IMG/VR virus record: IMGVR_UViG_3300043436_000341
Location: 1 to 27,876 of that record
From: a virus
Lineage: Duplodnaviria > Caudoviricetes
Reading direction: 5' to 3' (one strand)
Length of the DNA: 27,876 bases
Shown here: piece by piece, positions 789 through 22,158 of the stretch
Position numbering within the stretch: position 1 is the stretch's first letter
How the letters are laid out: every line of letters begins with the position of its first letter
Program-made: the position numbers and the translations under genes
Notes under the pieces: generated by a model
Seen by the model: only the letters and a program-made list of their open reading frames with translations
The model's database searches: none
Told to the model about the DNA's origin: nothing

Positions 789-889
789 TTGTCGTCGAGT
801 CCAAAGTACAGAACTGCAAACATGACGGCTACTGCAATGACACCGCCAAGAATCAGCAAGACAATCATCGTCAGGATGTTTTCAATCAT
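785..889 (-). CDS. small single-pass membrane protein (34 aa)
   Basis: Below the ORF-track cutoff: MIENILTMIVLLILGGVIAVAVMFAVLYFGLDDK. It fills the gap exactly and overlaps both neighbours. Confidence 0.7.
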   Translation of the reverse strand: MIENILTMIVLLILGGVIAVAVMFAVLYFGLDDK

Positions 890-1079
890 AGTTAAGCCCT
901 TTCAGTTTTAACTCAATATTCTTGGCGGTCTGCTCAATCTCACATCCCCCTTTGCCGTAATGGATACACTCATGTATCTGCTCGTCGGTGAGGGATACCC
1001 ACGGCTTTTTGTAGGTCTGGATGTCGTCGTCGTCCACAACCTTGCGGTGCGGTACTGATATTCCTATGTGTCGTGTCAT
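882..1079 (-). CDS. hypothetical phage protein (65 aa)
   Basis: GGAG upstream, ATGA overlap with the HNH stop, contains a PWVSLTDEQI segment. Confidence 0.7.
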   Translation of the reverse strand: MTRHIGISVPHRKVVDDDDIQTYKKPWVSLTDEQIHECIHYGKGGCEIEQTAKNIELKLKGLNYD

Positions 1080-1564
1080 GCTGTCTTCTCCACATGAGTA
1101 AATAATTCTTCTCGTTTAAGTCTTGCTGCAAGTCCTGCTTCTTCTTTTGAATAAAACATTCCAACAATTATTCTTTTTTTATTGTGAGAAATTGAAGCTA
1201 TCCACTTTTTTGCAGATTCATGCCAGTGAACGCCTCTATACCCGCTAGTATTATCTTTTCGTGGAGATATGTTTTCACAATTTTGCTTTTGAGTTGCAAG
1301 TCTCAAGTTGCACATCCTATTATCTGAACAATCTCTGTTTATGTGGTCAATGTTCAACTCTGGAAAATGCCCGTAAACATAAAGCCAAGCCAGTCTGTGC
1401 GCTTTGTAATATTTACGGTCAACTCCAACATGGATATATCCACGCGGATGCTGTGTTCCAGCTATCTCTCCAACTTTTCTTCTTTTTACTTGTTTTATTC
1501 TCGTAAACAAGCCAGTTGTCTCACTGTAATGAAACAACTCTTTAAGTCTTAATTGATTAATCAT
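1076..1564 (-). CDS. HNH homing endonuclease with C-terminal AP2-like domain
   Basis: AHRLAWLYVYG...IDHINRDCSDNRMCNLR is the HNH_3 core; NTSGYRGVHW...KWIASI is AP2-like. The start is placed at 1564 because GAGGTG lies 4 nt upstream; the track start at 1579 has no SD. Confidence 0.92.
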   Translation of the reverse strand: MINQLRLKELFHYSETTGLFTRIKQVKRRKVGEIAGTQHPRGYIHVGVDRKYYKAHRLAWLYVYGHFPELNIDHINRDCSDNRMCNLRLATQKQNCENISPRKDNTSGYRGVHWHESAKKWIASISHNKKRIIVGMFYSKEEAGLAARLKREELFTHVEKTA

Positions 1565-1602
1565 GTCGCACCTCATCATTGGTGGAAGTCATCACTAAAA
1601 GA

Positions 1603-1660
1603 AAGTGACAGCAGGACGGTGATGAATCGCCTTTTCCTCCGCTAAAAGTAGCTGTCACTT
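1603..1660 (-). ncRNA. C4-antisense-like structured RNA (three-way junction)
   Basis: A perfect 10-bp closing stem (AAGTGACAGC 1603-1612 / GCTGTCACTT 1651-1660) encloses two hairpins on the minus strand (CTTTT-AGCGGAGG-AAAAG and GCG-ATTCATCAC-CGT). The loop TCATCAC is complementary to downstream GTGATGA and TGATGA. Confidence 0.6.
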
Positions 1661-1662
1661 GC

Positions 1663-1690
1663 ATCTTAGCATTTTTCATGTCTTTTCCAA
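1663..1690 (-). promoter_or_regulatory. putative sigma70 promoter for the C4-like RNA/HNH cassette
   Basis: Minus strand reads TTGGAA-16 nt-TAAGAT with an extended -10 (TGcTAAGAT), directly upstream of the stem. Confidence 0.45.
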
Positions 1691-2149
1691 TATTGGTCTA
1701 GCTCTACGCATCATGATCTCTTTAGTGACAATATCAAGTGCCTTCTCAAGTTCGCCAATGGTGGTTATCTCAAGCATTGCGTCATGCAAAGCCATGCCGT
1801 AGTTGATCGCCATCAGCTCGGATGCCTTCGCCACAAACCTGTCGTCTCGATTGATACCGCGACGCGATAACTCCAGCAAGGCATCCTGTCCTTGCTTGAT
1901 CTCGTCTACATACTCATGCCCAATGCCAAGCCTTGAGAGAGCTTCGGAGACATTGAGAGCAGAGATGATGGAGTCGATGTCGTAGCGCTTTGCCTGACCC
2001 GTCCTGAGAGCTTCTAGGGCAGAGTGATTCTTTATCTTTAGATCGAGTGCTGCACCGCCAGTCGTGGACACAAGTCTAAAACCGTTTAAGACATAGGTGG
2101 TGGCATCGAGGCGCACACCTTTGGGTTTGTATTTACTTCTTTTTCGCAT
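1676..2149 (-). CDS. hypothetical phage protein (157 aa)
   Basis: Long ORF in operon orientation with a basic N-terminus MRKRSKYKPK; helical character. Confidence 0.8.
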   Translation of the reverse strand: MRKRSKYKPKGVRLDATTYVLNGFRLVSTTGGAALDLKIKNHSALEALRTGQAKRYDIDSIISALNVSEALSRLGIGHEYVDEIKQGQDALLELSRRGINRDDRFVAKASELMAINYGMALHDAMLEITTIGELEKALDIVTKEIMMRRARPILEKT

Positions 2150-2279
2150 TGCGTTTTAACCTTGGGCAGTTTATGCAGAACACTTTTTCCTTGGACTGAC
2201 ACACGCCAAGGGTCTCGCACTTGGTGCGTAGCGTTACCCACGGTGGCGGTGTTACCCATCTAGTTTTGACTTCCGTCAT
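2133..2279 (-). CDS. small Cys-rich protein (48 aa), possible zinc binder
   Basis: Manual translation: MTEVKTRWVTPPPWVTLRTKCETLGVCQSKEKVFCINCPRLKRNAKKK. TAATG coupling and a GAGAAG SD-like sequence upstream. Confidence 0.65.
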   Translation of the reverse strand: MTEVKTRWVTPPPWVTLRTKCETLGVCQSKEKVFCINCPRLKRNAKKK

Positions 2280-2863
2280 TATGAATTCTTCTCTTTTAAG
2301 AATAATTGAACCAACATAATAAGATCGTATGTAGAAGTCTTTTGCAATTTTGAACAGATCAATATTGCGTCAATGTCTGCATGGTTTAGCAACTTAAAAT
2401 TAGAGTTACTGCTTTCAATATCTCCTTCAAACTGCTCGCCAACAAGCAGCTCAAACTTTTCGAGTATCTCTTTAGTTGGTTTACTTCTGGCGGTTTCCCA
2501 ATGAGCTATCGTTGATCTCAGCACGCAAAGTTCATTGGCTACATCTTCTTGTCTCAGGTTCTTGCGTTTTCTGGCGTAACGAAGCCAATGGGAAAGGCTA
2601 TTCATGTTTAACGCAACGGCTGGAATAACTGATGATGCGTCTCTTAGCTGTGACTCACTAGCAATCAGAGTAAATTCACATTCAAAGAAATTGCAAAGCC
2701 TATCTAGGGCTGCCATGCGTGGATAAGAGTTACCAACTTCCCACTTGGCTATTGACTGCTGGCTGATTGATACAGCGTCAGCAACCTGTTGCTGGTTTAG
2801 TCCTAGAGTAGTTCTCTCAAGCAGTAACTGCTTGGCAAACTTATTTGTGTAGTCTTCGCTCAT
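2279..2863 (-). CDS. transcriptional regulator with two tandem XRE-family HTH domains
   Basis: Two HTH_3-like units: LGLNQQQVADAVSISQQSIAKWEVGNSYP and KNLRQEDVANELCVLRSTIAHWETARSKP. Confidence 0.88.
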   Translation of the reverse strand: MSEDYTNKFAKQLLLERTTLGLNQQQVADAVSISQQSIAKWEVGNSYPRMAALDRLCNFFECEFTLIASESQLRDASSVIPAVALNMNSLSHWLRYARKRKNLRQEDVANELCVLRSTIAHWETARSKPTKEILEKFELLVGEQFEGDIESSNSNFKLLNHADIDAILICSKLQKTSTYDLIMLVQLFLKEKNS

Positions 2864-21657: not shown

Positions 21658-22158
21658 ATGGCGAACACTAATCTATTAACGCAAGAGCGATTAAAAGAAG
21701 TGTTGAACTATGACGCTGAGTCTGGCGTGTTCACATGGAAGATCACCAGAACTAAAGCAGTAAAAGACATGGTAGCTGGAAACATTGATAGTCATGGATA
21801 TTGGATTATTGGAGTAGATGGCGTAAGACATAGCGCACATAGACTTGCTTGGTTATATCTTTATGGTTTTTACCCAAAAGAGATTGACCATCAAAATCAC
21901 AATAGGATTGATAATAGGCTTGTCAATCTTGAAGCAACTGACAGGTCTGGAAATGCTCGTAACATTTCAAAACCAATGAACAACAAGTCTGGCGTTATGG
22001 GAGTTTCTTGGACTAAAAGACTTGGCAAAAGAAACGACAAATGGGAAGTTAGGGCTTGCGGAAAGTTTTTAGGATATTTTGATAACTTTTTTGAGGCTGT
22101 TTGCAAGAGAAAATCGGCAGAACTTCAATTTGGCTTTCACCCCAATCATGGAATTTAA
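21658..22158 (+). CDS. HNH homing endonuclease (second copy of the family)
   Basis: AHRLAWLYLYG...IDHQNHNRIDNRLVNLE; NKSGVMGVSW; visibly AT-richer than its flanks. Confidence 0.92.
   Translation: MANTNLLTQERLKEVLNYDAESGVFTWKITRTKAVKDMVAGNIDSHGYWIIGVDGVRHSAHRLAWLYLYGFYPKEIDHQNHNRIDNRLVNLEATDRSGNARNISKPMNNKSGVMGVSWTKRLGKRNDKWEVRACGKFLGYFDNFFEAVCKRKSAELQFGFHPNHGI

Follow-up and report, generated by a model that had tools for sequence, protein, structure and literature searches.

A predicted loop-target pairing in the int-alpA leader RNA of a phage HNH endonuclease gene

The DNA considered in this study, called the window below, is the whole of a 27,876-nt stretch from IMG/VR record IMGVR_UViG_3300043436_000341, a linear phage record of 27.9 kb that is about 79% complete. 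Genes called in it include those for terminase, portal, scaffold, major head, endolysin, primase-polymerase and exonuclease, and neither tRNA nor tmRNA was found in the window. An RNA element lies on the minus strand, in a part where small genes of early type follow one another, and is flanked by a gene of 157 codons (1676..2149, minus strand; phrog_20828, function unknown) and a nuclease gene of 162 codons that starts at 1564 (1076..1564, minus strand). The nuclease is an endonuclease of the HNH-AP2 homing type (Pfam HNH_3, E 9.5e-14; phrog_99, E 7.8e-64), and its DH..N..N..N residues align with those of the HNH homing endonuclease in PDB 1u3e (E 0.0023). Its putative C-terminal AP2 DNA-binding domain scores an E-value of 1.3e-5 and 25.9 bits, below the Pfam cut-off of 33.3, and the same domain in a 92%-identical protein (from the relative L003) passes that cut-off with 33.9. 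The next gene on the same strand (882..1079) encodes 65 amino acids, belongs to no family, and is the one that adjoins the 157-aa gene in empty alleles of the locus.

The promoter, RNA, leader and HNH gene together make up an optional cassette of about 597 bp (1079..1676, minus strand) that is inserted at the SD-ATGA junction between the two flanking genes, with the junction motif present at both ends. The cassette is missing in 30 of 32 relatives (82-100% identity in the 157-aa gene), while two near-copies of the phage carry it, and in 14 of the 30 cassette-free relatives (two of these 14 only 40% identical) the flanking genes are directly joined. Two other records, L003 and L004, have a near-identical leader and an HNH protein that is 87-92% identical, with a flanking gene that is only 65% identical. 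Over its last ~140 nt, the 157-aa gene becomes less similar to the relatives with empty sites (mean identity 0.79-0.95 before, 0.58-0.77 here) and more similar to L003/L004 (about 0.5-0.7 before, 0.71-0.83 here). From these alignments, the end of the flanking gene looks to have been transferred together with the cassette, as co-conversion during homing would give. An earlier note on this DNA had supposed that a loop-target RNA switch in front of the HNH gene travels as a selfish element, and that view is supported by the absence of the cassette from most relatives and the covariation described below.

Some other features of the neighborhood may be recorded here. The 1079/1676 junction is a hot spot for insertion, where many relatives (L019-L047) carry varied small ORFs, the SD-ATGA overlap serving as the join in every case. 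The window has another HNH_3 gene (21658-22158, plus strand), which shares about 41% identity with the first; it is found among the late genes, 10 nt after the previous gene and without an int-alpA leader. An AT-rich gene at 2279-2863 (minus strand) encodes a protein of 194 amino acids with two repressor-type HTH stretches; it too is optional, occurring in three contigs among the relatives of the flanking gene (L001/L017, L002/L016 and L037). Finally, an ORF of 40 codons (1557-1679, minus strand) starts at an ATGA overlap with the 157-aa gene, spans the whole RNA and stops just past the HNH start; it is open in L001 and L003 as well. Coupling through this ORF, after the manner of icd/orf45, was considered and rejected: a frame started by ATG crosses the element in only about 12 of 114 homologues, and the ORF is for this reason treated as incidental.

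Of the 4227 families in Rfam, one alone matches the window at E<=1. It is int-alpA (RF02996), at 1593-1658, covering model positions 1-71 of 71 with 39.3 bits (cut-off 35.8) and an E-value of 5.9e-5. The earlier note had called the element C4-like and proposed that it be compared with the Rfam models C4, c4-a1b1 and c4-2. Neither these nor the IsrK model match anywhere in the window (E<=1), and in 20 sampled homologue loci the C4 family and IsrK models again found nothing (E<=0.1), while the int-alpA model matched 16 of the 20 at E<=0.1, 12 of them above its cut-off. The element is real, and its identity is int-alpA, not C4. It is a further member of a family that has been catalogued but left unexplained, the motif presumably stemming from the 224-motif survey (Weinberg 2017).

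The RNA occupies 1603..1660 (minus strand; 58 nt). The earlier description of a three-way junction of this length with a perfect 10-bp closing stem is borne out by the sequence at 1660-1603, and the junction is backed by the Rfam match and by covariation in its inner helices. The closing stem, P1, pairs 1660-1651 with 1612-1603. P2 pairs 1648-1645 with 1640-1637, the sequence GAAAA (1636-1632) follows between P2 and P3, and P3 (1631-1628 with 1618-1615) carries a variable loop of 9 nt (1619..1627, minus strand), the last 7 nt of which are complementary to the targets discussed below. What had been described as loop AGCGGAGG is no loop: covariation within the family makes GGAG the 3' strand of P2, paired with CUUU around the loop UAGC, and L003/L004 show a double change from U-A to C-G in this helix. 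The partial pairing of GGAG with a downstream CTTCC that had been suggested must also be given up, there being no cognate excess (3.47 vs 3.40 bp, with 1489 of 5000 permutations as high). Folding of the single sequence 1601-1658 gives modest support (z -2.4), and the minimum-energy fold for the window (-16.3) has an inner fold unlike the three-way junction of the family (-13.6), so the case rests on homologues.

Homologues were collected with a degenerate pattern that fixes the invariant core and leaves P2, the variable P3 pair, the loop and the leader free. The pattern finds 121 stretches in 9 of the 64 parts of IMG/VR, from which about 920 are estimated. In all there were 128 pattern matches, which came to 118 distinct elements after removal of 10 duplicates and to 116 after removal of two with short flanks; counts given over 114 elements leave out two of the 116 that have no called ORF. 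The span of the RNA from P1 to P1 is 54-58 nt, and the 116 distinct homologues display 38 loop types. Sixty of the 116 were placed in a structure alignment made from sequence only. In that alignment two base pairs of P2 are formed in 100% of the sequences and show 15 and 17 double changes, the variable pair of P3 is paired in 60 of 60, with 21 double changes, and inner P1 is 94.6% paired; columns that are invariant were fixed by the search pattern and are uninformative for covariation.

The family was also sought elsewhere. A scan of species genomes gave 23 matches, seven of which looked real by eye. Four of the seven were run against Rfam and all proved to be int-alpA, three over the cut-off; the remaining matches of the scan have neither P1/P2 nor targets and look fortuitous. 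No host is claimed, since the labels of metagenome-assembled genomes may reflect mis-binned phage contigs. Cultured or annotated phages gave one informative match (MW202520.1), in which the element again precedes an endonuclease. A few observations stand apart from these counts. Two records labelled Planctomycetaceae (L235, on a contig of 190 kb, and L239) have int-alpA-type elements with matching loop and targets, under labels outside Pseudomonadota. Some elements before DUF1376 genes (L281, L283 and L092:455-583) have a P2 arm of far greater length and escape the strict pattern, and in one locus (L137:370-1366) the element and its EndoVII-like nuclease directly follow a cluster of six tRNA genes.

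The sequence reported earlier as an extended -10 promoter on the minus strand is present as TGnTAAGAT at 1663..1671 (TG at 1671-1670, TAAGAT at 1668-1663). Its hexamer matches the consensus at 4 of 6 positions, and a promoter scan did not list it. Of the 116 homologues, 95 have a TAnnnT box at a distance of 9-16 nt 5' of the anchor, as compared to 8 of 116 in a control interval, and in 91 of the 96 elements scored the box ends 1-7 nt 5' of P1. From this arrangement the transcript likely starts at P1, with a predicted start here near 1658-1656, in which case a transcript from the local promoter would include only 6-8 of the 10 base pairs of P1. Since the -10 box directly precedes P1 and leaves little or no leader, trimming by RNase P looks unnecessary, though RNase P may cut transcripts that read through from upstream.

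On its 3' side the RNA is followed by a U-rich linker (1597..1604, minus strand) in which 7 of 8 positions after an 8-bp P1 are U, possibly a partial terminator or a point of trimming. A terminator scan did not list it, and its U content varies over the family: 62 of 116 elements have at least five T in 9 nt, and 25 of 116 have two or fewer. In six elements (L103, L120, L125, L146, L175 and L194) a C-rich, CCACC-like flank resembling the 3' end of a tRNA replaces the U tract after P1. Ten public runs have small shares of matching words, and the four of them that were aligned, all assembled contigs, show a peak of depth over 1615-1655; the peak is present also in runs that are probably DNA and reflects the many phages that carry the motif.

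Two complements of the P3 loop lie downstream of the RNA, and both had been noticed in the earlier note. T1 (GTGATGA, 1589..1595, minus strand) is complementary to the loop over 7 bp and is predicted to serve as a decoy in cis, the partner of the loop in a pseudoknot. T2 (TGATGA, 1573..1578, minus strand) is complementary over 6 bp and overlaps the Shine-Dalgarno sequence GAGGTG (1574-1569) of the HNH gene, so that the predicted pairing would cover part of the ribosome binding site. The calculated duplex energies in the window are -8.6 kcal/mol for T1 and -6.6 kcal/mol for T2. A feature absent from the earlier description is a hairpin, P4 (1569..1584, minus strand), whose 4-bp stem (CACC 1584-1581 with GGTG 1572-1569) encloses an 8-nt loop that holds T2, and whose 3' strand is part of the Shine-Dalgarno sequence. 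P4 with its extension amounts to -5.7 kcal/mol, and a stem of at least 4 bp encloses T2 in 97 of 114 homologues, as against 44.7 expected from shuffles.

The placement of the two targets is regular. T1 forms 6-7 bp in 100 of 114 elements, at an offset of 11-18 nt after the core, and its pairing leaves 2-3 nt of the loop free in 102 of 114. The distance from the end of T2 to the start codon is 6-12 nt in 103 of 114 elements; T2 is of 4 bp or less in 37 of 114, and forms the weaker duplex of the two in 91 of 113.

The earlier note had proposed that covariation of loop and target be sought upstream of homologues, and such covariation was found. The longest perfect duplex of a loop with its own leader averages 6.24 bp, as compared to 4.19 bp with swapped leaders, and the second site of the loop averages 5.06 bp with the cognate leader and 3.53 bp with others. 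None of 20,000 permutations over the 38 loop types reaches the cognate complementarity at either the first or the second site. In the alignment of 60 homologues, 94% of cells in the five pairs between loop and T1 are paired, and these pairs account for 67 double changes. When the whole structure is slid along the alignment as a control, pairing is 32-56%. Kinship was controlled by pairing elements according to the similarity of their client proteins, giving 43 disjoint pairs, 22 of which differ in loop. The element's own leader beats that of its partner in 21 of these 22 for T1 and in 19 of 22 for T2, with 3 ties, and in one of the loop-differing pairs the clients are 99% identical over the first 80 amino acids. 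Nine elements found only by the model, their loops read by eye, follow the same pattern (6.6/4.9 bp own vs 4.2/3.3 bp swapped), the second-best site lying beyond the start codon and not at T2 in three of the nine. The P3 loop, judged by these comparisons of sequences, is seen to covary with two downstream copies of its complement, and the predicted pairing scheme of the int-alpA leader is well supported. I consider it very probable that the loop pairs with T1 and T2 to control translation in some way, and likely that the leader RNA limits the amount of nuclease made.

Clients were assigned from Pfam and PHROGs on 114 downstream ORFs and tallied over all 116 elements. The element is not specific to nucleases: 64 of 116 lead replication initiators (49 with DUF1376, which in five checked are primosomal or initiator-like, and 15 others), 28 lead nucleases, 11 a small ORF, and 13 something else or an uncalled gene. 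Despite the name of the family, neither an integrase nor an AlpA family is present among the Pfam hits of the 114 downstream ORFs, and no antirepressor family is among the client hits listed. The loop type of the window precedes nine nucleases and eight initiators. Eighteen nuclease loci have long flanks; an ORF lies downstream in 15 of them and an initiator in none, and the neighbors of nuclease loci include RusA, NinB, NinG, Erf, Gam, terminase, major head and tail genes. The lack of a downstream initiator and the diversity of neighbors imply that nucleases carry their own leader into many operons. A single leader background precedes HNH-AP2, other HNH and NUMOD4-HNH nucleases, with two loop codes and both targets changed between them.

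Two further kinds of ORF were noted near the element. A family of 75-80 amino acids with a weak match to phrog_17352 (L104, L126, L147, L172 and seven more) lies behind the RNA and is followed by a replication initiator in the two cases checked; it is possibly a leader or a regulatory gene. In L103, the element is immediately preceded by a short ORF (1164-1481) that resembles DUF1376 and duplicates the N-terminus of the downstream initiator.

A search of 100 phage records with the model found eight that have two or three elements, with nucleases and initiators as clients, giving 12 co-resident pairs, all with different loops. The second set of 50 among these records gave no extra pairs. The chance of seeing no same-loop pair in 12 is about 0.14 (at 0.15 per pair), and the difference is for that reason a hint only. 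Two records (G047:C1:837-2721, L284-L286; and G016, L271-L273) each have three int-alpA-type leaders before different nucleases, with three loops, those of G047 all within 2 kb.

How might a single loop and two copies of its complement work together? The model I find best, at just short of an even chance, is a self-limiting translational switch in which T1 acts as a decoy in cis that keeps the mRNA on, and a released short RNA pairs with T2 and so stops translation. On a new transcript, the loop would be caught in cis by the nearer and stronger T1, as an H-type pseudoknot with 2-3 free loop nucleotides and a helix of 6-7 bp. With the loop on T1, only the weak P4 would lie over the Shine-Dalgarno sequence, and nuclease would be made. 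Partial termination or 3' trimming within the U-rich linker would give rise to short RNAs without T1, and these would accumulate with their loop free. Such a short RNA could pair with T2, or displace the loop in cis from T1 onto T2, and in either way the ribosome would be blocked. The outcome would be a brief early pulse followed by silence, with the loop sequence as the code of specificity. The logic would resemble that of the C4/CI RNA on a different scaffold, serving mainly phage replication initiators. Both the repression and the action in trans by an excised RNA are steps I infer; the fast switching of loops and the different loops of all 12 co-resident pairs are hints of the latter. Several observations weigh against the model. 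Recombination between identical copies would also remove same-loop pairs, the U tract is weak in a fifth of the family, the narrow spacing of T1 fits a pseudoknot purely in cis equally well, and IsrK, the closest architecture, activates (PMC4825925). The short T2 of 37 of the 114 elements, the three model-only elements in which the second-best site is not at T2, and the minimum-energy fold of the window also count against it.

The sequences bear on other readings as well. A short offset and few free loop nucleotides, such as those of T1, are the geometry of an H-type pseudoknot, and the switch could be one in cis alone, the loop forming a pseudoknot now with T1 (on) and now with T2, where it would mask the Shine-Dalgarno sequence (off), with no free small RNA. 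The balance might be set by folding kinetics, by where the transcript starts (read-through or the local promoter), by temperature, or by a protein or ligand on the conserved junction. That the U tract is not universal accords with this, as does the use of a cis pseudoknot by the repZ leader (PMC8053102). Such a switch, however, gains nothing from joint changes of loop and targets, yet there are 38 types of loop, with switching between near-identical clients; the loops of co-resident elements differ, though not significantly; and Rfam types int-alpA as an sRNA gene. A switch confined to cis is a possibility I regard as rather unlikely. The sign of the effect might instead be the opposite of that in the preferred model. 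A 6-bp helix formed within an 8-nt loop could strain the 4-bp stem of P4 (-6.6 vs -5.7 kcal/mol), so that pairing with T2 would open P4 and free the Shine-Dalgarno sequence, the short RNA then activating late, with a delay like that of IsrK, or the pseudoknot activating in cis as in repZ. The short form of IsrK does activate its own read-through mRNA in trans (PMC4825925), and homing endonucleases are often expressed late (PMC2988022). Against activation, T2 overlaps or abuts the Shine-Dalgarno sequence by its position before the start codon, and the loops of several elements are complementary to the Shine-Dalgarno sequence proper, so that binding would cover it. I judge activation to be improbable.

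Two readings do without a switch made of RNA. A word of 6-7 bp occurs twice in direct and once in inverted orientation upstream of DNA-binding proteins, and these copies could be operator or iteron sites through which the downstream protein regulates itself, the RNA fold being incidental. The same word, however, serves clients as unrelated as the nucleases and initiators that share the loop of the window, near-identical clients use different words, and P2, P3 and P4 covary as RNA helices, which makes operators a very remote prospect. The earlier note had also allowed that the RNA might be a guide or cofactor of the HNH nuclease, and indeed RNA and nuclease move together. But nucleases are the clients of only 28 of the 116 elements and belong to several unrelated architectures, initiators being the clients of 64, and all 11 of the more distant HNH relatives (36-49%) are without the RNA. 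Because the same loop precedes unrelated proteins, and because its complements sit in its own leader, a role as guide or cofactor is unlikely in the extreme.

Returning to the model of decoy and released RNA, a broader proposal may be built on it, which I put forward only tentatively and think more apt to be wrong than right. The int-alpA RNAs would be a portable, protein-free module of 100 nt for feedback and immunity, in which the decoy keeps a new mRNA on while the released RNA counts its own copies and silences messages with the same code. Swappable codes would set the dose of initiator and define incompatibility groups. Homing nucleases of at least five kinds (HNH-AP2, other HNH, NUMOD4-HNH, EndoVII-like and GIY-YIG-type) would have adopted the module, using codes that do not match one another within a genome, each gaining its own insulated timer in any operon. 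Whatever the fate of this proposal, an orphan catalogued RNA family, with its estimated 920 or so viral stretches by one strict pattern, gains a concrete candidate mechanism that can be tested cheaply. Were the trans model true, the family would offer a compact feedback circuit made only of RNA, with natural orthogonal codes, by which phages would control the dose of replication and keep selfish nucleases in check, and which could be taken as it is into synthetic regulation.

Mentions of the family in the literature are few. The int-alpA RNA appears in a table of PMC12370729, and in PMC13612085 'int-alpA' is the name for a gene module. The accession RF02996 was not found in the full-text literature searched, and 'alpA' is absent from the main text of PMC5737381. 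No paper with this pairing or mechanism was found in a literature made up mostly of journals outside subscription; the supplement of PMC5737381 may comment.

Comparison with known systems begins with int-alpA itself. The Rfam family (RF02996, of type 'Gene; sRNA') has the same P1-UA-P2-GAAAA-P3-CU-P1 junction as that described here. Its consensus ends just past P1, without the loop-target pairing, T2 or P4, unlike the element as extended here, and whereas the name speaks of int and alpA, the clients found are initiators and nucleases. The C4 RNA of P1/P7 (RF01695) and the CI RNA of P4 resemble the leader as modelled here in being three-helix RNAs from the transcript that they control, with a loop over the ribosome binding site and a loop that gives specificity: in C4, b' partly occludes the binding site and the a' loop sets specificity (PMC5320573). 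C4 is about 77 nt (77+/-1), cut by RNase P from a longer precursor (PMC5320573), whereas the RNA here is 54-58 nt and its promoter abuts P1. C4 has two loops (a' and b') for two targets, where here one loop faces two copies of one target, and the clients here are not antirepressors. The likeness to C4 that the earlier note had proposed thus fails on length, on the arrangement of loop and targets and on the position of the promoter, as it does on the models.

IsrK corresponds to SeqA as C4 does to CI (PMC3632133). In IsrK of Salmonella Gifsy-1 and SeqA of P4, as in the int-alpA leader, a read-through mRNA begins at its very 5' end with a short, structured RNA, which acts there, and would act here, on the long form of the same transcript (PMC4825925). 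They differ in that no Rfam match to IsrK exists here, and in that IsrK activates by means of refolding and a coupled leader ORF (PMC4825925), while the homologues of the present element do not conserve an ORF that crosses it. T4-type homing endonucleases are also held down by RNA that sequesters the ribosome binding site, and in the T-even phages (I-TevI-III, segB, mobE) an RNA structure lies over that site with a promoter just upstream (PMC2988022). Those hairpins are described as simple and as relieved by the choice of a late promoter, with no three-way junction, variable loop or duplicated target. Finally, the repZ leader of IncI1/IncB plasmids resembles the leader as predicted here in its pseudoknot between a loop and a downstream sequence beside the Shine-Dalgarno sequence of an initiator, opposed by an antisense RNA (PMC8053102). 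The antisense RNA of repZ is encoded on the opposite strand, and the system requires a leader peptide (PMC8053102), whereas in the int-alpA leader the loop, both targets and the putative regulator all lie on one strand within 100 nt.
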